This document shows positions 11,205-35,820 of a stretch of 64,000 nt of DNA, in pieces (position 1 is the stretch's first letter; every line of letters starts with the position of its first letter). Where the stretch lies: contig NIVC01002508.1 of NCBI GenBank assembly GCA_002269645.1, positions 1 to 64,000 of the forward strand, given 5' to 3'. The notes under the pieces were generated by a model that was given only the letters and a program-made list of their open reading frames with translations, was not told the DNA's origin and ran no database searches. The position numbers were made by a program, and so were the translations under genes. Source of the stretch: Macrostomum lignano (taxonomy: Eukaryota).

Positions 11205-11304
11205 AGTAGTAGTATGTTATAAGGGGCTGAGTCATCCAGCGAGCTGGCGCGCAATGCGCCCGAGCAATTAAGTGTGGCGCAGCCCCTTATAACATACTAC
11301 TACT
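11205..11304. repeat. 100-bp element with perfect 25-bp terminal inverted repeats starting AGTAGTAGT
   Basis: AGTAGTAGTATGTTATAAGGGGCTG (11205-11229) and its exact reverse complement (11280-11304), around a GC-rich 50-nt loop. Confidence 0.9.
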
Positions 11305-14589: not shown

Positions 14590-15099
14590 TATTTTACATT
14601 TTATGCATAGACAGCAGAGGCTTATGGCATAGGGGACACACGTCTCCTAAAATAGAGTCATGTTGTCAAGAATTTTAACAGAACCCTTTAAAAAAGAAAA
14701 GTCTCACTGTTGTGTTGGTACTAATTTAGTATAGGCCTACTTAATATACAAATTTGATAATAAAATAATATTTTTTATCTTAGTTTAAATTATATATGCT
14801 ATGAAAACATCTTGGTAGGTATTAAATACAATGTTCAAGTGTTTTCTATATAACTAAGCTAGGCCTACCAACTTTTAGATCTATATTTTCCTGAAATTCT
14901 AAAACATTCATGCATAGCACAAATATAATAACTTGCTGAACATAACATATACAGTCCAATATCCAGTTTATTTTTTTGGTCTTCACAGTGGTCTTCATCC
15001 TCATACCCGGTGGGAAAAAAGCTGGCGGTCCGCAAGCGCTGCCGCCATCGGTATCGCCAGCGGCCCGGCAGTCGGGATGCGCCACGAAATGCTAGCGGC

Positions 15100-23803: not shown

Positions 23804-24289
23804 CTATAAAGAAGGACAATATGCTTTTAACTCTAATTGATGCAGTACAATTTTTTAATCTGATGAAAATTTTATACTATTTTAACTGCTATATAGTAGC
23901 GAGTAGCTTAATACAAGTGTAAAGCGCTCTTAAAAGTAAAAATAAAGGGAATGCAGCTGAAAGTTATTACACACCCTAAACAAAGAGACAAAAGGGCACA
24001 TGAAATTCGGACATATGTCGAATTTGCATTGTGTACTTTCAGAGCAAGAATCATGTCTTTACCCCTCCAGAGTCCAGGTAATCGAGAAAACGTAAATTAC
24101 CAGTCCGGAATTGTAACAGAGAGCCTAACAGAGCCTAACAGCCTAACAGAGAGGCTACTACCAATGACGCATTTTTCCGGGCGTTTTGGAGGTGGGGTGG
24201 GTGTCAACCCACCCCGCCTCTCATTGGCTGACGCGCGCCGCAGGTGCATGGCGCCAAGCGCCATCCAGGCGCGCGGCGCCAATCAGACG

Positions 24290-24590
24290 CCCATGCCGCA
24301 GGCGCACCCTCCCGATATGTGCACTCTCCCCAGCCGCAGGCGACCCTCCCGATATGTATGCCGCAGGCGCCCATGCCGCAGGGGTGCCCTCCCGATATGT
24401 GTGCGCACTCTCCCTCCCGATATGTATGCCGCAGGCACACCCTCCCGATATGTACCTCGATATGTATGCAGCAGGCGCCCATGCAGCAGGCGCCCATGCC
24501 GCAGGCGCCCCGAGTGTACACTCTCCCGAGCCAAAGGTACACTCTCCCTAGTACACTCTCCCCAGTACACTCTCCCGATATGTAGTCAAT
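24290..24590. repeat. Degenerate GC-rich tandem repeats (CCCTCCCGATATGTATGCCGCAGGCG; TACACTCTCCC)
   Basis: Units directly visible. The overlapping ORFs are repeat artefacts. Confidence 0.85.
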
Positions 24591-24875
24591 GATATTAGGC
24601 TAGTGAAAACTACTTTTAGTAGGTGAAGTTGTGTATATTTACATAAAAAAGTAGGCAAAACATATTGGTAGGTGTAAATATTGGTGCATATAGGTATATG
24701 AGCAGCAAAAAAACGCACAATGTAGGCGCATATTATCGATATATTGACAGAAAAGCGGGTGAAATAATGAATAAAACATAGGTGGAAATACACAGTAGAT
24801 ACAAGTATAATGCACACACTCAAGATTCAAATTATGTAGGTGCATAGGCTAAAATACACACAATGTAGGTGCAAA

Positions 24876-25480
24876 TCTCTACATATAAAAATCAAAACTC
24901 TGTCTGTCTGTCTGTGGACAAATTACTTCGCTATGGACTCCCAAACCGCTCAACCAAATGACACCAAACTTTACACCCACCCTAAACTTACTACGGAGAA
25001 TGTCTTAGGCTACCTTTAAATTTCCTAGACTCAAGTCTTCCTACCTAAAAGTACAAAAAACTGCTCAAAATGCGCGATTTTTTCACTTAATCCTCCATAG
25101 CGCCGCTCCACTTCTACCGATTCTCTTCAAATTTGACACAGATAATCTTTAACTATTTTGGCACAATCATGTAAAATTTCGAGTCTCAAAGTTAATCCTG
25201 AGCGGTGCTGTGAACTTTTAAAGTTTGGCTGTTTTTTTCAGCGTAGCAACCACCCCAACCTCCGCCCGCCTGCCTCTCTTTCCCGATACCGATCTGGGCC
25301 CAGATGTGTAAAAGGGTTTCAAAATTGACTAACTTTCAGCTGCCATAAGTTTGCTCCACGTAAAGCGATTGACTTCAAACTTGACACAATTCTTCATTGA
25401 CTCATTCTCTATCTAAATGTAAAGTTTAAACTCTGTAACTCAACCGAAAAAGAAACTGTAAGCATGTGAAGTTTGTCTGC
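24876..25480 (+). mobile_element. Helitron-like non-autonomous element (5' end)
   Basis: A|TCTCTACATATAAAAATC followed by (CTGT)n and CCGCTCAACC...CCAAACTTT, typical of animal non-autonomous Helitron/DINE-like 5' ends. The 3' boundary is not determined. Confidence 0.45.
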
Positions 25481-26059
25481 TTTTTCTGTTGTTTGTGCCA
25501 CTCACTTACTCATTCCCCCAGAGCCAGACGAAGGGTCAGGCGATAGGACTGAATGTACATAGCAAATGTACAGTGTTTTGGAATTCCACCCCGAGAGTGG
25601 AGAGGCTACGTTTAGCCATAACAGTTTAGTGAGAAATTCTAACCACTGCCCTCCCCTCTGTATTGGCAAACTCTGCAGCTGTTTAACAGTGGATGGCAAA
25701 TCAAGGCAATCCAGCATGGTTTGTAAAAGCGAAAGATTTATGAAAAGGCGATGCAATGCAATAAAACCCTACTAAATTAGTCACAGTCACACCATGGAGA
25801 TTTTAAGTTTCTCTTAAAAGTACTTTGAAATTGAAATGGCCTCCTAAAAAATGTGTATTTCCTTGGTTGTTAGACTGATGCAGACTGCAGTGGAGCTGAA
25901 GATACAAAAATTCTTTTCAGGGCTTGCAAATTGGCAAGAAAGATGACATATCAAAGCATGAGAACAGCCATGAGAGTACTACGTCCCACAAACTGGCTTT
26001 CCAAGCAGGAATGGGCAGACTTTTACCTTTAAGTCCAGAAAAGAATCCAGCTTATGACT

Positions 26060-26959
26060 GAGGGGCAGTTGAGAGTGGGGAGAAGAAGGAATAGACTATT
26101 CGAAAAGAGAGGAGAGGTGAGAGAGGGAATAAGAGATAAGATAAAAGATAATAGGAGAGATGAGGGAGTGAGGACGATGAGAGGAGAGAGTAGAGAGGAG
26201 CGAGTAGAGAGGAAAGAGTAGAGAGGAGCGAGTAGAGAGGAGAGAGTAGAAGAGCGAGTAGAGGGGCGAGTAGAGAGGAGAGAGTAGAGGAGCGAGTAGA
26301 GGAGCGAGTAGATAGGAGAGAGTAGACAGTAGAGTAGATAGGAGAGAGTAGACAGTAGAATAGCGAGTGGAGAGGAGAGTGTAGAGGAGCGAGTAGAGAG
26401 GAGTTAGTAAAGAGGAGAAAGGAGAGATAAGAGAGAGAATGGAAGAGAGAAGAGATAAAGTTGTACAGATGAGAGAGGTGTAAGGAGAGATGAGAGATGA
26501 GAGATGAGAGATAAAGGAGGAGAGTGGAGAGAGAAGAGACGAGACATGGAGAGAGTATATAGAAGAGGGAAGAGAAGAGAAGAAAGGAGAAAGGAAAGTG
26601 AGGAGACAAAGGAGGTGAAAGAAAAGAGTACAGAGGACAAAATGAGAGAACATTAAGACAGTAAAGATGACAGATGAAAGAGGGGGATGAGCTGAGAGCA
26701 GAGACGAAAATGAACAGACGAGAGATGGGAGAGTAGAGAGAACAGAAGAGAGATAAGAGAGAAGAGATTACAGAGACGAGAGGAGAGACAAAGGGAGAGA
26801 GAAGTGAGTGAGGCGAGAGGAGAGAAAAGAGGAGAATGGAGGGGAGAGAGTAGAGAGGAGAAGAAAGATGGGAGAGGAGAGATAAGAGAGAAGAGATTAC
26901 AGAGACTAGAGGAGAGAGGAGAGACAGGGAGAGAGAAGAGGAAATAGGAGAATGAAGAG

Positions 26960-27010
<51 letters not shown>

Positions 27011-27560
27011 CAGAGCAGATAGAAACGAGAAGAGATAAGAGAGAAAAGATAAAAGAAGAGAAAGGAGAGATAAAAATGCAGACCAGAGAGAAGAGAGGTG
27101 AGGGAAGAGACGAGCGACGAGGGGAGAGAGAAGAGAGAGAGGAAAGAGTAGAGAGGAGAGAGGAGAGAGTTAAGAGAAGAGAGAAAAGAATAGAGAGGAG
27201 AAGGAAGAGACGAGAGAAGAGGGGGAGAGAGGAGAGAGAGGAGAAGAGAGAAAACGAAAAAGTAGAGGAGAGAGGAGAGGAGAGAGAAAAGAAAAGGGAA
27301 GAGATGAGATAAGAGATATGAAAGAGAAGAGAGATGAGGGAAGATACGAAAGAAGATAGGAGAGAGGAGAGGAGAGAGAAAACGAAAAGTAGAGAGGAGA
27401 GAGAGAGAAAAGAGTAGAGAGAAGAGACAAGAGATAAGAGAGATGAAAGAGAAGAGAGATGATTGAAGATATGAGAGAAGAGAGGAGAGAGGAGAGAAGA
27501 GAGAGGAGAGACGAGGGACGAGAGAGAAGAAAGGAAACAGAAGAGACGATAGAAATTTTA
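26060..27560. repeat. Purine-rich (GA/GGAGA) low-complexity tract including a (GA)n microsatellite at ~26960-27005
   Basis: Near-pure A/G on the plus strand. Confidence 0.95.
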
Positions 27561-28119
27561 AAGGATCCAAGGGACATAGGGAGAGTCAGGGAGAGGCCAG
27601 AGTTTGCCAATACATGTTTTAGAGTCAGACAGACATTGCCTGACATTCTGTGAAGTACCCCAGTCCAGTCAACAATATCAATGTTTGCCTCAAATCCTAA
27701 TTTTACACGAATGTGCTCCATTTTATGTCTACCTCTATCCTACTAACTATTAACAAGTTTTTGTTTCAGATGGGCTCAGATTTCAGAATACATGCAAAAA
27801 TAGTTCCGGGGATTGGAATTCCCCGGGTTCAAAATCCGCGGGTTTCAACAGCTTGTTAAGTATAATGCGGGAAAATTACATAGCATATAATGCAGGCGCA
27901 GTTTAAACAATACATTTTGCATATTAACCCACAGGCACAAAGTATATATCGGTGCATAGGCTAAAATACACACACACACTGCAAATTGAGTATAATGCAG
28001 GAAAATTGTGACATATACAACATATGTATGCAAAATTAAGCATATAATGTAGGTGCAAAGTAAAAACAAGCAACAGGCCCCCTAGTAAAGAGACACGCCC
28101 CCGCATTCCTCCCCAGGGC

Positions 28120-28880
28120 CGGGGGATCCCAAGTACAGTGCGGGCAGAGAGGAGAGAGAAATTCCATTCCTCCCCAAGCCCTAAATAAGGTTTTTTTTCA
28201 AGGGGATCTCAAGTACAGTGCATGCAGAGAGCTATTTTCCTCCCCAATGGGGGTTATCAAGGACCCCTTACCAAGTACGGTGACGGCAGAGTAACCGCAT
28301 ACAAATAGGGTTATATTCAGGGGGGATCCCAAGTACAGTGCGCTCCGGGGTTGAGGTGTCAAATGAGTGTTTTATCACTTGAAGGGATCTCGCCAGAATG
28401 TACAGTTGGGGCGAGGTGTCAAATGGGAGTTTAGGACTCCTCACCTAGTACAGTGTGGGCGGAGAGCTGTTTTTCCTGCCAGGGGCTTCCAAATAGGGTT
28501 TATTATTCAAGGGACCCCTCACATTGCACAGTGCGGGCAGAGTAACAGACCGCATACAAAGAGAATTCCTCCCATGGAGCCTCAAATAGGGTTATATTCA
28601 AGGGACTGTGGGGGATCCCAAGTACAGTGCATGCAGGCAGAGAGTAATAGAGACCGCCCCCAATGTACAGTGCGCTCCTGGGTGTCAAATGATGAAGGGA
28701 TCCCGCCCCAATGTATAGTGGAGGTAGAGTAACAAACCGCATACAAAGAGAATTCCAGTCAAACTTTACCGCAGCTCCCAACCCCCAATGAGGGATTTTA
28801 GTGGATCCCCAGAGGGTAGCTCTCCAAGTTGAGGGATCCTCCAGTGTGTTGCGAGGCCCAAGTACAGTGCAGGCAGAGAG
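28120..28880. repeat. Degenerate array of ~9-10 units with core CCCAAGTACAGTGC(G/A)...GCAGAG
   Basis: Cores at ~28128, 28208, 28272, 28328, 28446, 28525, 28618, 28661, 28709, 28858. Confidence 0.75.
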
Positions 28881-29372
28881 TAATAGAGTACAAAGAGAAA
28901 TTCCCTTATCAGTCAAACTCGAGCGCGATCTTCAGCCAGGGCAGTCTCCTCCTCATCAGCGCTCTCGAAACATCTGTCAAAGTAAATGTTGGAAATGACA
29001 AGCTAAGGCGAGCAATTGCTATGAGACGAGAAAACGATAGCTCTGAGCCCACGCTCCGTGCGAAACTATTTATTATCAACGATAAAGCACGAACCCGCGA
29101 CAACCCCCCAACCCAGGACTAAAACTCACCGCACTGCACATCAGAGCACGATGACAATAATAATTTGATACGTACACTCAGACTGAACAAAAGTACAAGC
29201 ACCAGTGAAATAAGCAATCAAATAATAAACAGTGCGAAGCCCCGCCAAAGCCTAACAGTGAACAATATTTTAGTGTTCAATATAGACAGATTATATCTAA
29301 TTTATATGCAATTTATATGAAATTAAGCTTACCAAAATCGGGTTCGCGTTGTACGGATGCGGCACGCCTCAA

Positions 29373-29870
29373 TTAGCAACCCTCTTCAAACAGATTTCCC
29401 CAAGGGTAGGGTTTGATGCTGTCAAGGCAGTCCTGCAGATTGTCCTCTGTCTTGGCTCGCTTCGCAGGCGGTGGGGCTTCGGGTGCCGGCTTGAAGAGCT
29501 TGTCCAAACGGGAGGCAAACATCCGGCGCCACAGTTCAGGCGTGAATTCGATCGTGTAGCGCCAATTAAACTTTGGATCCCGATTGAGCCAATTGCGCCG
29601 CAAACGAATCCTACCCTGTGAAGCTTCGATAGCCTTGAAACTGCCCAACACGACCCTCTTGTCCACGTGAAGGCGGGCAGCAGCCTCCAGGTCAGGGCGC
29701 GCAGCTTCGAGCTTCTTCCACTCTCGCTCGCTCAAGTAGATTGCAGGGAAGCCGTCCTTCCACACTCCAGCCTCGTCTGTGTAGAGCCGCCGAATTTCAA
29801 TCAAGTTGTGTTCAGTTTCAAATGTGGGCTTCCGCGCCACAACGTTTTCGTATAGAGAGATAGAAGACAT
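29373..29870 (-). CDS. PC4-like ssDNA-binding protein (possibly two PC4 folds) with basic NLS-like tail
   Basis: IEIRRLYTDEAGVWKDGFPAIYLSEREWKKL matches the PC4 pattern (VDIRE.Y.D..G..KP...GI.L..EQW..L). A second similar block reads IRLRRNW...YTIEFTPELWRRM. Tail PPAKRAK. ORF is intact. Confidence 0.7.
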   Translation of the reverse strand: MSSISLYENVVARKPTFETEHNLIEIRRLYTDEAGVWKDGFPAIYLSEREWKKLEAARPDLEAAARLHVDKRVVLGSFKAIEASQGRIRLRRNWLNRDPKFNWRYTIEFTPELWRRMFASRLDKLFKPAPEAPPPAKRAKTEDNLQDCLDSIKPYPWGNLFEEGC

Positions 29871-30107
29871 GATTTAGCAGCAGAGAGCTCTCTGACAGCC
29901 GTGCAGCGCCTTATATACCCCCGGATGGAGGGTGGGGTGGGTGGTGATTTTGGGGGTAATTTTTGATGATTTTGGTTGGTTTTTGGCGATTTGACCAATA
30001 GCAGGCGAGCTAAGCAGATTTTTTGGTATATATACAGACCCCCAGAGCCAGGGTAGAGAGATAATCCTTCTCTCTCCGCTCGCTCTCTCACGCTCTCTGT
30101 TTGCAAA
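29871..30107. promoter_or_regulatory. Compact bidirectional promoter
   Basis: TATATAAG on the minus strand ~40 bp upstream of the PC4 ATG, GTATATATAC on the plus strand ~75 bp upstream of ATG 30108, with a G-rich tract between. Confidence 0.5.
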
Positions 30108-33100
30108 ATGGCTAAACGCAGCGCCGCAGCAACTGCTTTCCTGGCTGATAAGAGGCAGCGTCTTTATGGTAAGTTTTAATTAATTTCTGGCCGTCTAGTC
30201 TAGACTAGAGTTGCTAGGGTAGGGTACTGATAAGAATTGGCAGGGGTGAGCTGCTGCGACAGCTGCAGGGGTTTAGACAAGTTCCAGCAGGATGTGCGGG
30301 GACAGACTGATAAGAAATTGGTGCAGAGAGGGTGCTGCCCAGACAGGCCGCAGCTGGGGTGCAGATAAGAAATTGCTGCAAAAAAAGAGGGAGTTGCTGC
30401 GGTAGGGTCTGTGGGGCAGCAGAGTAAACAACAAAGACTGAGACTGCTGCGACAGCTGCAGGGGTCTAGACCGGAGTTGCTAGGGGTAGCGCGGTCGGGG
30501 TGCAGATAAGAAATTGGCAGGGTCTGTAGCAAAAAACTACTGGGGTGTGGTTGAGGAGGGCTAGACACGTTTCAGCAGGGTTAGCAGCAACAGCTGCAGG
30601 GTCTGTGGGAGAGGTGCAGCAGAGTAAACAAAGACTGATAAGATTTTGCCTCGGGTAGGGTGTTGTGCGTGTCCAGACAGGCGGGGGGTGTGCGGCAGCA
30701 GGGTACTGATAAGAAATTGCTGCAAAAACAGACAGAGAGTTGCTAGGGTTAACAGCTGCAGGGAATTGGAGGGGTGCAGCAGAGTAAACAACAAAGACTG
30801 GGGCTGCTGCGACAGCTGCAGGGGTCTGGTGGCGGAAGGGTACGTTGCTGATAAGAAATTGGTAGGGGCTGTAACAGATAATCGTTGGGGAGGGCTAGAC
30901 AAGTTTCAGCAGGGTGGCCCTTTCGGGGTGGATGTACTGCCCGAGGCGATCCGTGCCTTGAACCGTCTGCATCCAGCCACGATTTTGGTGTACGAGTGTA
31001 CCGGGCAGAGGAGGCCAACAGGTGCATCTATGAGCTGCCGCACCGAGATTCTGCACCTCCACCTCGTAGAGCAGCACTTCAATGTGGTCACCAAGCTGCC
31101 TGCGTTTTTCGGGGCCCGCCGCTACTGCGCCAAGTGCGAGATGGCCTACGACTGCAATTATGAGAAGCACAAGTGCGCTAACGCTTGTAGCACCTGCAAG
31201 ACTCCGGGCTCCAACTGCAAGGCTAACCGCGCATATGTAAGATGCCATGATTGCGGGCTAAATTGTTATAATGCTCAGTGCCTAGAGAATCACAAGCGCA
31301 AGAATAAGGCGGGTAGATCGCGCTGTGATTCAGTCCACGTTTGCGGCACGTGTGGCTATCTAGAAGAACTGAAAGTAGGCCAGGCCCCCGAGCATCAGTG
31401 CGGGTACGCCAAGTGTCCAGTCTGTAAGCAGTACGACGAAACGGCCACCCACGAGTGCTTTGTCACCCCGCCCAAAGCTAAAGAGTCTAGCGCGCCGTAC
31501 GTTTACTACGATTTCGAGACGTACGTAGACTCTGGCAAGCAGCACCGGGTACACTTGGTTACGGCTGCCACCTCCTGCGAGGCGTGTCCCAAACTCTTCC
31601 CTAGGCCCCGCTGCGGCGCGTGCGGGGGCTACACAGCTCAGCCAATTGCATTGCGGGACGCAATCTGGCGCTGGTTTTTACGAGCTGTGTCTCGCACAAT
31701 GACTGTGCCTGTGGGATGCGAGAGTTTGTATCAGTCGGGCCTCACTCTATCGATGCCTTTTACTGCTGGCTGACTAGTGTCTTCAAGCAAAGGGCAATTG
31801 CTATTGCGCACAACGGCTCTGCGTATGACGCATTCCTCCTGCTCGGCGCCCTACTCAACGGACTGGCCAAGAAGAAGCCACAAGTGATCTTCCAGAACAG
31901 CCGCCTAATGTACATGAAGTGCGACAAGATCACGTTCAAGGACAGCCTCAACTTTATCCCTATTGGTCTGGCGCAATTCCCAAAGGCGCTTGGTTTGGGC
32001 ACCCAACTGACCAAAGGAGATTTCCCGCACGTGTTCAATCAGCCGCAAAACTGGGGTTACGTGGGGCCCTACTGCTCGATTGATATGTACGGAGGGAAAA
32101 AGAACAAGCAGCACGACTCCATCGCCGACTGGCTGGCCAAGCAGGAGGGTCGAGTGTTTAATTTCAACAAGGAGTACCTGGACTATTGCCTGCAGGACAC
32201 TCTAATTTTGCGGGAAGGCTGTCTTAAATACGCCTGCCTGATTAAGGACATTTGCGGACTGGACGCATTTGTCCAATCCAACGCCATTGCGGGCTTGGCT
32301 ATGGCTGTATTCACCACCAAGTTTATGGAGCCCAACACTCTTGGGGTGATTTCCCGCCGATCAGTTGTGCAGTCGCACAAGGCGCGGTGCTGGCTTGCAC
32401 ATTTGAATGCAACCGAGTTTGGCGGCCGGTTGAGGACAGCCGATTCTGGCGGCGAGGCTTTCGCCATGGGCCGTAAGGTGGATGGCTTTGACTCGGAGAC
32501 TAGGACAGTGCTCCAGTTTCACGGCTGTTTCTTCCATGGTTGCCCAAAGTGCTTCCCCAACGGTGACGTGCTGCACCCGCTCAAGAACCAGCCAATGCGG
32601 GCGATTTATGAAGAGACTGAGCGCTTCACTGATGTACGCTGATGTACGTGTTTTGTGGGAGCACGACTATCAGGGCGAGGGAGCACCAGTTCAGTAGCCT
32701 ATTCGCCTGGAGGAAGCCCTGTTTGGCGGCCGCACCGAGGCTTTTGTCCCGCACGCCGAGGCCACTGAGACTGGAGCTGCGCTATCGGGATGTGGTAAGT
32801 TTGTACACTTTTCAAAATTTCTCATGTACACACACACACACAGTTGACATGCGTTTGAGTTTAGCCTACTTATCCCCTAGGTGTCGCTCTACCCGACTGT
32901 CAACAAGTTTGACAAGTACCCTGTCGGGCACCCGGTTCACCACCCCGAGCCTCATCTACTGGATGAGCAGCAGCTGGCCCGGTATTTTGGTATCGCCGAG
33001 GTATCGATTCTGCGCCAACCAATCTCCACATTCCGCTACTGCCCGCCAAGATTAGCAAGAAGCTGGTTTTCGGCCTCTGCCGCGTCTGCATGGAGACACA

Positions 33101-33597
33101 GTGCAGCAGCGAGTGTACACACTCTGACGCTGAGAGAATGCTCCGCGGCACGTGGTCGACCCCAGAGCTCCACAAAGCCCTGCAGTTGGGTTACAAGCTG
33201 CAGTCAGTTCATGCCCTGGCCTATTGGACCAAGACTCGCACGGGCTTGTTTGCAGACTATGTAAACACTTTTTTAAAGCTCAAAGCCGAGTCTAGCGGTT
33301 CGCCGGGAATGACTGAGGACGCCAAGGCTGCCTACATGGCCAGCTTTTTCGAGCGCGAAGGCGTCCGGCTTGACAAGGTGGAAGAGAATCCTGGCCTGCG
33401 CTTTGTTGCCAAGATTTTTCTACACTCGTAAGTTGGGGAGACTGTGCTAGTAGCCAGATATTCGCAATATACAAAAACATATTTTTCCCGGGGAGACTGT
33501 GTTTTTCTACTTACAGTAGCCCGATATACAAAAATTTATTTTTCCCTGCAGGCTCTGGGGCAAATTCTGCCAGCGCGACGACTTGACCTTGACTTGA
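30108..33597 (+). pseudogene. polB: Group-1/alpha-type protein-primed DNA polymerase B with spliceosomal introns; disrupted and truncated after motif B
   Basis: Cys-rich N-terminus (HFNVVTKLPAFF..RYC..C...H.C); ExoI YYDFET; ExoII AHNGSAYD; KDSLNF; KGDFPH; ExoIII YCLQD; Vsr-like KVDGFD...QFHGCFFHGCPKCF; ALFGGRTE; motif A YRDV|VSLYP split by intron 32795-32880; motif B KIFLHS|LWGKF split by intron 33428-33551. Probable first exon 30108-30168 (GTAAGT donor). Lesions at ~31625, ~32635, TAG ~32695, ~32770, ~33013. No motif C. Confidence 0.9.
30200..30900. repeat. Degenerate tandem array (CTGATAAGAAATTG / GCAGCAGAGTAAACAACAAAGACTG / GCGACAGCTGCAGGGG / CTAGAC blocks)
   Basis: Blocks recur ~5-6 times between the putative first exon and recognisable pPolB sequence. 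Confidence 0.75.
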
Positions 33598-34928
33598 CGC
33601 GACGACTTGCCAGCCGACCAGCCAGTCAGCAAGCAAGCCAGCCGACCAGTCAGCCAGCCAGCCAACCAACCGACCTGCCGAACAGCCGACCAGCCAGTCA
33701 GCAATCAAGCCAGCCGACCAGTCAGCCAGCCAGCCGACCAGCCAGCCAGCTAGCCAGCCGAGCCGTAAGCGAGTCAGCCAAAGTTACGAGGAGACGTTTT
33801 TGACTTACCTAACCAACCGACCAGCTAAACGGCGTCAAAGTTCTGCATCGGTGGATACGGAGCGAAAGCTGTTCACCGTCAGAACTGACAGATCGGACTA
33901 CGCTATCTGGACCTATGAGCGTGACAGCTTGCATGGCACACGCTGGATTTCAGCAAGTGTACGTGTCGAAACTGAATCACTCGTTGATGATTAAAATTAA
34001 AATCTCATCATGCATTCCCCTCGTTCACTGCTGCAGATCCCCAACGCCTACATAGCTGTACTGGCATGTCAGGCTAAGTGTGGCATTACGCATCTGTACA
34101 ACTACGAGGTGGACACACTAGGGGACGCCATCCTGCAAGACGAACTTCAGACGAAGCTTGTGAATGCTAATAGGAAGGCAGGCTCCCGCATTCTTGTCGG
34201 CCCTCTGCTACTTAGCCATCACTTTTGCCTGCTCGTCATAGACTTACGACTGCGCAGTCTCGTTGTCATTGACCCGAAGGTCAGGCAGAGCGACGAGCTG
34301 ACTAAGAAATTCGTTATCGCTGTCAAGTAAGCTAAAGTTCTGTTGAAACAGTAAACTTGCTCCATTTCGACATGAAGGTCCAAAAGTTTGCGAAACACCC
34401 ACATTGCTACTTACCCCTAAACACCCACCTAATCTGCACGCAGCCAACTGCAACATCTTACTGGCTGGCCGACCCTGGACAAGCCTGCACGCATGCCAGG
34501 GCACTTCGTTCAGGAGGACAGCTACAGCTGTGGCATCCTGGTGTGCCTCTTTGCGGAGAGCGTCATTTATACGAAGCACACCGTCCTGCCAGAAGTCGTT
34601 CACAACCTCCCTTACCAGAGACTGCGCATCTGGAATACCTTGGTGAAGGCCGCCATCGGCTCAAGTGGCCTGTGCTTCACCTGTGGCGAGGAGGAAGTTT
34701 TTTTCGACTCGGCGGCACAGGAAGCCGGATGAATGGGTAAGAAACATTTGCACACAGCAGCAGTACACGTGTCAAAATTACCTTCCCCATGCCCCTTTAT
34801 CTTCATCACAGATTGCCTGTGATTCCTGTAAAGCCTGGCATCACCAGTTCTGCGTTGGAATCGCAAAGCTAGCACCGTCAAGGGTGTGGCACTGCCCCAC
34901 TTGCCGGCTCGAAAGGCAGACAGACTGA
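33593..34928 (+). CDS. Spliced Ulp1/C48-like cysteine protease + PHD finger; 5' end missing, one frameshift
   Basis: Introns 33959-34036, 34327-34443 and 34737-34811 (all GT..AG, in phase). Spliced product reads RWISAS|IPNAYIAVL, GPLLLSHHFCLLVIDL...VIDP (H, D), HFVQEDSYSCGILV (Q, C), then CFTC...DEW|IACDSC..WHHQFCVG...WHCPTC (PHD). +1 frameshift in T7 at ~34700. Confidence 0.8.
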
Positions 34929-35820
34929 TTGACGAATGGTAATTATCATGATCTGACTAGTCTGTTTCGAGTATCAGCTTGCAGCATTTACTTGCAGCAA
35001 TTTATAAGTACGCTCGTACAACACTTCTCTATAAAATCCACTGAAGTCGTTCCATTTTTGTCTTTATTCAACCGATAATTTTACGCAAGCATTAGATACA
35101 AAAATAAGTATGTCAAAAAAAGTCATCACGATTAATTATGTTACAAACTGTCTTGAATTTCATTAATTCAAGAATAAATTCATTTTGTTGGAGACCACTC
35201 AGTTGCGACATTGTCGTTTTTCACCGTTTATTACTGACATGCCCAGTCCTCTTATGTTTTATCCACAGAACTTACACAAAATGCTCAATCAGCGTTCTCT
35301 TTTTAGAATATAACTGAGTAGAAATAGATACGCGCTCACACTACTTTGTTGATGAAGAGGAATGAGTAGCCATATGTTAGTCTATGGCCAAAACATCGGG
35401 GTTTTCGCGAGTGCCTATGAGGCGAAGGCTTAAAGTTAGTTCTGTGTAAGTTCTGTGGTTTTATTTGCTGTTTAACGTAATGTTATCTTCATCAACTGAT
35501 TGCAATCTTTTGTCGTCAAGGACTATATTTTCTTAACTTGTAATAACAAATACATCGATAACGAAGGCTGAATAATTGAAAACTACGTTTGCATATAACA
35601 CGAGAGATTAAGAAAAAGAACATAAATTACACGTACGAATTTTACTGCCTTAATTGAGTTTAAAGGCAATAAAAACAGGGACTCAGCATACCAATAGCAT
35701 ATAAAAATGATAGCGCCCTATTGTTGTCAAAATCAATTACTGACACTGCGAATGTTGCACATTACTGAAAACAATTATTGCTAGCTTCATTACAACAGTT
35801 ATGTGCTTGCGACCTGCCTT

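Follow-up and report, generated by a model that had tools for sequence, protein, structure and literature searches.

The window, that is the whole stretch of DNA analysed here (64,000 nt; positions 1 to 64,000 of the forward strand of contig NIVC01002508.1, Macrostomum lignano assembly GCA_002269645.1), contains a broken copy (24157–33589) of a multi-copy polymerase element of ~9–10 kb. It belongs to family A of two families, A and B, which are ~65–70% identical. This copy is probably the dead polymerase half of a bipartite Maverick/Polinton, i.e., of a two-component system. Two classes of element were found whose genes are complementary and do not overlap; they are integrated with separate target duplications and share family-specific ends, both are under purifying selection, and the polymerase gene is spliced at GT..AG sites in contigs that are likely to be RNA. 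An earlier interpretation of the window, made from its letters (the sequence-only reading), had described a viral-type polymerase gene with spliceosomal introns at 30108–33597. The start given there is not the limit of the element, which begins at 24157, and homology stops at 33589, short of the proposed end.

The Polymerase Element

The polymerase is a protein-primed family B enzyme with motifs A, B and C, and Pfam DNA_pol_B_2 (PF03175) matches were found in flanking frames. A genome search with its exon 4 returned at least 142 matches, 49 of them near full-length at 87–100% identity (family A) and 22 at 69–70% (family B), with the rest being fragments; only the best candidates were scored, so the copy lists are lower bounds. 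Twenty copies of each family were taken with their flanks, and for 27 of them both ends were located; 26 of these 27 elements are flanked by an exact 6-bp target duplication. Their ends read 5'-ACTAC...GTAGT-3', their terminal inverted repeats span ~0.2–1.4 kb (longer in fold-back copies) and the segments are mostly 8.8–10.9 kb in length. No match to integrase, capsid, penton, protease or ATPase was found within any of the 27. Two flanking matches of integrase/capsid type (L029, L036) lie outside the ends, at 26–34% identity, and come from unrelated Mavericks; L036 itself sits inside a canonical Maverick.

A PC4-like gene is present in all 12 two-ended family-A copies, and its product is likely a single-stranded DNA-binding protein, judging by profile similarity. 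The protein of the window is by itself a weak match to Pfam PC4 (E 0.021), while each of eight aligned homologs matches it (best E 5e-8) and the profile matches the solved human PC4 (E 2e-9). An atlas search with this protein gave a best score of 0.87, which is a lead only. Exon 3 of the polymerase can be aligned across a Cys motif (E 1e-6) with the N-terminal region of an intronless relative, the part to which putative terminal-protein and vOTU functions are assigned here.

In some family-B polymerase elements (L055, L175) there is also a gene for dUTPase (Pfam E 7e-27 in L175) along with one that is PC4-like, most B copies having neither, and the longer family-A copies carry an extra open reading frame (ORF) of ~330 aa to which no function was assigned. 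A lone degraded polymerase at 37% identity (L136) is not linked to family A or B.

The Partner Element

Since 6-bp duplications imply an integrase, the genome was searched with the integrase of a relative, L145. This led to a 10.9-kb element with family-B ends and its own duplication, which has integrase and capsid-module genes and no polymerase. Its integrase in turn retrieves two groups, ~92–100% and ~72–85% identical, the second of which has family-A ends; both families A and B thus have both halves. The partner class is ~10.5 kb long with intronless genes for an integrase, a double-jelly-roll capsid, a putative ATPase and a protease-like protein. A polymerase match was found in none of the 22 capsid/integrase elements fetched, 17 of which were delimited at both ends, with an exact 6-bp duplication in 15 of these. 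Genome-wide end patterns gave 30 A-type capsid-class ends, forming 11 pairs at 10.3–14.0 kb, and 70 B-type ends, forming 27 pairs at 7.6–14.4 kb. The longest elements carry insertions or fold-backs and have no polymerase, and four short pairs are gene-less palindromes. When matches were merged by hand into 56 family integrase loci and 104 polymerase loci, three integrase loci were found on a contig with a polymerase locus, at distances of 45, 168 and 466 kb.

The major capsid protein was modelled from a 20-row alignment with a predicted local distance difference test score (pLDDT) of 85.8. The predicted fold is a double jelly roll, matched in Foldseek by the major capsid proteins of PBCV-1 (Vp54), mavirus and Sputnik (best E 5e-18). 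The integrase matches Pfam rve (E 2e-9), and its chromodomain match is weak (E 0.055). The penton, protease and ATPase genes have no Pfam match above cut-off, and they were named by a Walker A motif, by the order of the genes and by resemblance to the neighbors of related capsid genes. A Pox_A32 profile search of the genome gave no matches, though ATPase-like genes exist.

A Fic/DOC-family protein (Pfam E 7e-14) is encoded at L216:1930–2706, in a family-A capsid element. Capsid proteins 80–81% identical to that of the partner (P0198–P0200, from ENA/Logan contigs) represent a related family outside this assembly. Searches for related loci with P0035 and P0038, and with A4 in viral contigs, found nothing.

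Shared Termini and Palindromes

Between the polymerase and capsid elements within a family, the mean Hamming distance over the initial 32 nt is 8.4 (minimum 0–1), compared with 6–10 within a class and 15.5–16.7 across families. At nt 33–45, ~11 of 13 positions differ between partner elements. After nt 33 the B-type capsid elements resemble A-type polymerase elements, which indicates that ends have been exchanged.

Between nt ~10 and 30 the termini vary from copy to copy in modules of ~5 nt, which recur in the polymerase, capsid and palindromic classes. In 48 of 59 elements a copy has the same modules at its two ends; between different copies, 24 of 841 pairs agree.

Elements with the same ends and no clear genes (L102–L109, L111–L120, L121–L127, L129–L131 and L306–L309) are near whole-length palindromes of 3–9.6 kb, most of them carrying 6-bp duplications, and are likely snap-back satellites. 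Other palindromes consist of polymerase or capsid fragments (L042–L044, L140, C1313). Polymerase-less elements with the same ends were also considered as partner segments and rejected, as they are mostly whole-length palindromes or carriers of mariner or long terminal repeat insertions. The canonical Mavericks of this genome occur in many copies with AGTAGT ends, integrases and 6-bp duplications, and in several of them (L167, L181–L182, L191–L200) a PC4-like gene lies just before the integrase.

Introns of the Polymerase Gene

The polymerase gene of the element family has seven exons and six introns, the latter at the same position and in the same phase in families A and B; the sole exception is the phase after exon 6 of L036, for which a frameshift in this copy accounts. 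Introns 4, 5 and 6 sit one each inside motifs A, B and C, and across copies the motif residues flanking each intron are conserved. Under random placement, each motif would receive one intron ~4 times in 100,000, the motif windows having been drawn after the fact. The three donors and two acceptors given in the sequence-only reading were all placed correctly, but its three introns are half of the family's set, the window copy having lost introns 2–3 and 6. Copies with motif C, for which that reading had suggested a search, were found, and the sixth intron lies inside this motif.

GT..AG was present at every junction found in 21 family-A copies and at 92 of the 99 junctions found in 20 family-B copies. 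For the introns that split motif A (32795–32880, 86 nt, phase 0) and motif B (33428–33551, 124 nt, phase 2), the boundaries are GT..AG in 21/21 A and 18/20 B copies. Family-A lengths are 65–121 nt for the motif-A intron and 67–124 nt for the motif-B intron, and this variation ignores the reading frame. Copies lacking these segments, which would have spoken against introns, were sought at every junction found, and none of the 41 genomic copies was intronless. The introns are fixed in all copies and predate the split of A and B.

Splicing was assessed on contigs of four runs, three of them likely RNA and from three studies, with sister copy L036 as the reference. Skips of 488, 70, 209, 67 and 71 nt at GT..AG were found in 2, 3, 3, 2 and 3 of the three likely-RNA runs, and the 69-nt motif-C intron was bridged in one record of run X8 only. 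These skips equal the intron lengths predicted for L036 (488, 70, 209, 67, 71 and 69 nt). Run X17, probably DNA, has none of these joints on L036 (one X17 joint row at a repeat was left out). Junction reads had been proposed as the check on the introns, and the outcome agrees with all three, including the donor after a short first exon (exon 1, 30108–30168; GT at 30169), whose joint is seen on L036 in two of the three likely-RNA runs. The closest UniRef proteins bear the name of M. lignano, and among 16 host database gene models checked, motif A is joined in 8, motif B in 10 and motif C in 6.

An introner origin was rejected, as the intron sequences are unlike one another: 12 introns, from one A and one B copy, score 10–27 in pairwise alignment and 122–1996 against themselves. 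A further spliced GT..AG intron was seen at L036:9138–9214, on the opposite strand and downstream of the PC4-like stop codon, in two of the three likely-RNA runs.

Relatives and Selection

Outside the host, the best relatives of the polymerase are 27–41% identical. Two from IMG/VR are single ORFs beside capsid genes, and among 82 long relatives motifs A, B and C are contiguous in 77, 71 and 75, respectively, at the level of protein. A quick tree with 87 rows places A and B in a single clade (Shimodaira–Hasegawa-like approximate likelihood ratio test, SH-aLRT, 100; stem 0.94) nested among Maverick-type polymerases. We infer that the introns were gained on the stem of this clade, because the relatives read as single ORFs through motifs A–C and A and B form one long-branched clade sharing six positions. 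Intron gain had been proposed in the sequence-only reading, with a domesticated polymerase or an intron-rich mobile lineage as its bearer; the mobile lineage stands, and the ~100 dispersed loci with ends and duplications refute domestication. The intronless element at 3858–6920 which had served as comparator has a different type of polymerase, with an endonuclease VII domain and beside a primase-helicase, and is not close.

The phylogeny and substitution rates that had been called for were both obtained. Between A and B, the nonsynonymous divergence (dN) is 0.20–0.49 for the polymerase exons, 0.066 for the major capsid protein, 0.125 for the integrase and 0.079 for the ATPase, with synonymous sites near saturation throughout. 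By this measure, both halves are under purifying selection. Of the 18 long loci found with the capsid query, six have a polymerase ORF.

The Window Copy and Its Surroundings

The features of the window copy are as follows.

24157–24876, forward strand: left end (5'-ACTAC...) of the family-A polymerase segment, with the beginning of its left terminal inverted repeat (blastn to the ends of sister copies L029 and L027; sequence read)
24877–27855, no strand: later insertion of ~3.0 kb in the left repeat, including an AG-rich array and foreign to the element (absent from the 99% identical duplicate locus L021/L061)
27856–28986, forward strand: rest of the left terminal inverted repeat and subterminal repeats (matches both ends of sister copies)
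29373–29870, reverse strand: PC4-like small gene, 165 aa, divergent from the polymerase (Pfam and profile matches)
30108–30168, forward strand: polymerase exon 1, 61 nt, followed by a phase 1 donor (intron-1 joint on sister copy L036, 2/3 likely-RNA runs)
30169–30908, forward strand: 5' part of intron 1, with its acceptor, exons 2–3 and introns 2–3 deleted (junction anchors 1 (acceptor), 2 and 3 absent from the window; alignment restarts at 30909)
30909–32794, forward strand: polymerase exon 4, with Cys-rich region, exonuclease motifs and start of motif A (Pfam DNA_pol_B_2 E 3e-13; alignment to sister copy)
32795–32880, forward strand: intron 4, 86 nt, phase 0, inside motif A (GT..AG as above; skipped in 2/3 likely-RNA runs)
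32881–33427, forward strand: polymerase exon 5, end of motif A to start of motif B (Pfam and sister-copy alignment)
33428–33551, forward strand: intron 5, 124 nt, phase 2, inside motif B (GT..AG as above; skipped in 3/3 likely-RNA runs)
33552–33589, forward strand: first 38 nt of exon 6, where the copy is cut (alignments to sister copies)

This copy had rightly been called damaged. Exons 2–3 are deleted, exon 4 has frameshifts near 30975, 31040, 31629, 32629–32642 and 32774 by alignment to a sister copy, and exon 5 has one near 33013 together with a substitution at an otherwise conserved motif-B position. From the middle of exon 6 onward everything is missing: motif C with intron 6, then exon 7 and finally the right terminal repeat. 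Positions 15027–37754 have a 99% duplicate (G000:C2719) in which the deletion and truncation also occur. The open frame of exon 4 is longer there (671 vs. 345 aa), so some of the small frameshifts of the window copy may be assembly errors.

Other features of the window lie outside the element. Positions 1–10000 contain a different, intronless Polinton-like element with the endonuclease VII-bearing polymerase, a primase-helicase and two further kinds of ORF, penton-like and protease-like, for the latter of which the genome has at least 150 matches. A 100-bp hairpin at 11205–11304, which starts AGTAGTAGT and ends ACTACTACT, resembles a minimal canonical Maverick end pair. At 34001–34940 there is an Ulp1-like protease fragment split by an intron, with a PHD finger (E 5e-6), which is probably part of another transposon.

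Comparison with Known Systems

Adenovirus pol and pTP have spliced leaders, and inteins or group I introns are found inserted in the motifs of family B polymerases. The gene described here resembles these in its short first coding exon and in having intervening sequences at conserved catalytic motifs, but its introns are spliceosomal and internal, and motifs A, B and C contain one apiece. No paper on the intein parallel was found in the literature search.

Both halves together have features described for Mavericks/Polintons, namely a protein-primed PolB, RVE integrase, double-jelly-roll capsid, long repeats and a 6-bp duplication, along with a putative ATPase and a protease-like gene (PMC8097293; PMC5718144). 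Neither half is by itself a canonical Maverick; together they make up its gene set. The canonical form is monopartite, 15–20 kb, with intronless core genes (intact vertebrate Mavericks and the core genes of nematode Mavericks have been reported as intronless), whereas here the set is split over two separately integrated elements of ~10 kb, the integrase is on the partner and the polymerase has six introns. The ends are 5'-ACTAC, unlike the AGTAGT of canonical Mavericks in the same genome. Adintoviruses are defined by a PolB whose N-terminus bears an OTU-like domain, and by an integrase with a C-terminal chromodomain (PMC11071296).

The Bidnaviridae (Bombyx mori bidensovirus) and the Drosophila Vesanto virus are segmented, as is proposed here, with a polinton-derived PolB and with segment termini that match, a published hallmark of bidnaviruses (PMC8502044; PMC4061559; PMC8363768). 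They differ in having single-stranded DNA and a parvovirus-type, single-jelly-roll capsid and a helicase, compared with a double-jelly-roll capsid and integration of each segment with a target duplication here. Introners have been described in polinton-like proviruses of dinoflagellates (10.1101/2025.03.18.643946) and are also spliceosomal-type introns inside polinton-like elements; however, those are young transposon copies, and the six introns found here are unlike one another, fixed and older than the A/B split. Group I introns are known from polinton-like elements of protists (PMC12220804). A full-text literature search (subscription papers, supplements and Repbase being outside its scope) found no bipartite or segmented Polinton, no inherited spliceosomal introns in a Maverick polymerase and no Mavericks of M. 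lignano. A search by term found no mention of Maverick or Polinton in PMC12801592 and nothing relevant in 10.64898/2026.10.13.758929, 10.64898/2026.07.28.741278 and 10.1101/2024.01.15.575659.

Proposed Mechanism and Alternative Explanations

In the two-component system proposed here, host Pol II and the spliceosome would serve to produce the polymerase. The N-terminal terminal-protein part of the polymerase would prime at the ACTAC ends and its vOTU domain would release it, by analogy with polintons (PMC11161782). The polymerase could then copy in trans every molecule with cognate ends, both its own element and the partner. Strand-displacement synthesis with end-to-end (panhandle) pairing would keep both ends of a copy alike, and the PC4-like protein would coat the displaced strands. 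The RVE integrase of the partner would insert all classes, making their 6-bp duplications, and its capsid, which is under strong constraint, would probably package molecules of ~8–11 kb, which is the size range of both segments and most palindromes. The same-ended whole-length palindromes may be snap-back satellites exploiting both halves. More speculatively, the introns in the catalytic motifs may persist because imprecise loss there would be lethal, and they may tie replication to host splicing.

A number of points weigh against the bipartite interpretation. The system is known here from sequence, and we infer both complementation and particles. Metagenomic relatives retrieved with the capsid protein are monopartite, and no tblastn match links their polymerases to the one described here. 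The abundant canonical AGT-ended Mavericks have integrases and could help in trans. In 11 of 59 elements, the initial 33 nt of the two ends are unlike. The assembly has duplicated loci (L021, L043/L044, L046/L047), and copy numbers overstate independent insertions. The types of the sequencing runs are guesses, none being recorded as RNA, the splice test covers the family via L036 and not the window copy, the motif-C joint comes from a single record of one run, and the transcript evidence covers the polymerase element only. The dN/dS values were derived from a single capsid-gene pair and six pairs of polymerase exons, with dS saturated, and the tree was made by a quick method.

Four alternatives were weighed. 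Both classes could be deletion derivatives of a monopartite Maverick, or of an exogenous adintovirus, that provides every function and is missing from the assembly. Deletion products do integrate, as the many defective palindromic and truncated copies show, and the genome searches scored only the best candidates. Nevertheless, none of the 38 capsid-type pairs has paired ends more than 14.4 kb apart and the long ones lack a polymerase, beyond nt 33 the repeats of one class are unlike those of the other, and the same split is seen in both families with saturated synonymous sites, implying that it arose twice or is old. We find this explanation distinctly improbable.

The bipartite mechanism could also have another history, as a consortium of separate origins in which a polymerase-only linear replicon and a polymerase-less Maverick came together by capture of terminal origins. 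The halves may indeed have separate origins, given that the monopartite capsid relatives carry unlike polymerases, and mixed pairings of polymerase and capsid have been reported among adintoviruses (PMC11071296); the exchange of ends noted above for B-type capsid elements points the same way. Such a history is still distinctly improbable in our estimation, since the PC4-like gene of the polymerase element is of the same family as the gene preceding the integrase in canonical Mavericks, and the A/B pairs diverge in parallel.

Integration of the polymerase element by canonical AGT-ended Mavericks, its end resemblance to the capsid element being incidental, is very improbable. Many such elements with integrases and 6-bp duplications exist, and L036 lies inside one, but their ends are AGTAGT and not ACTAC, and identical or one-mismatch 32-mers are common to polymerase and capsid elements in a family-specific manner. 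Finally, a host polymerase that was domesticated and acquired introns can practically be dismissed, as can a dead gene with unspliced insertions: the multi-exon structure, transcription and automatic UniRef gene models are host-gene-like, but domestication would predict few fixed loci without ends and was rejected on the ~100 dispersed loci with terminal repeats and target duplications, and the conserved GT..AG and splice joints argue against unspliced insertions.

Implications

The proposed bipartite arrangement runs against the usual view of Mavericks as monopartite, intronless virus-like transposons that may or may not form particles. A split genome with both halves selected since synonymous saturation and with host introns would be intermediate between a transposon, a multipartite virus and a host gene, and it offers a case of a viral gene that gained introns in a non-random arrangement, each catalytic motif having received one. 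Screens for Mavericks that depend on ORFs or on gene content in cis would miss such elements or misclassify them as fragments. As the host is a tractable animal and transcribes the polymerase gene, a direct search for episomes, particles and mobility is feasible.

We are evenly divided on the further proposal that this is a segmented, integrating double-stranded DNA animal virus, with a double-jelly-roll capsid, a polymerase segment whose gene old spliceosomal introns, six in number, have made host-like, an integrase/virion segment, palindromic satellites, a concertedly evolving terminal origin, and particles. If true, it would be a multipartite member of the polinton–adenovirus lineage, living in a laboratory animal that is transgenic, and the arrangement offers a route by which segmented polinton-derived viruses may have arisen.

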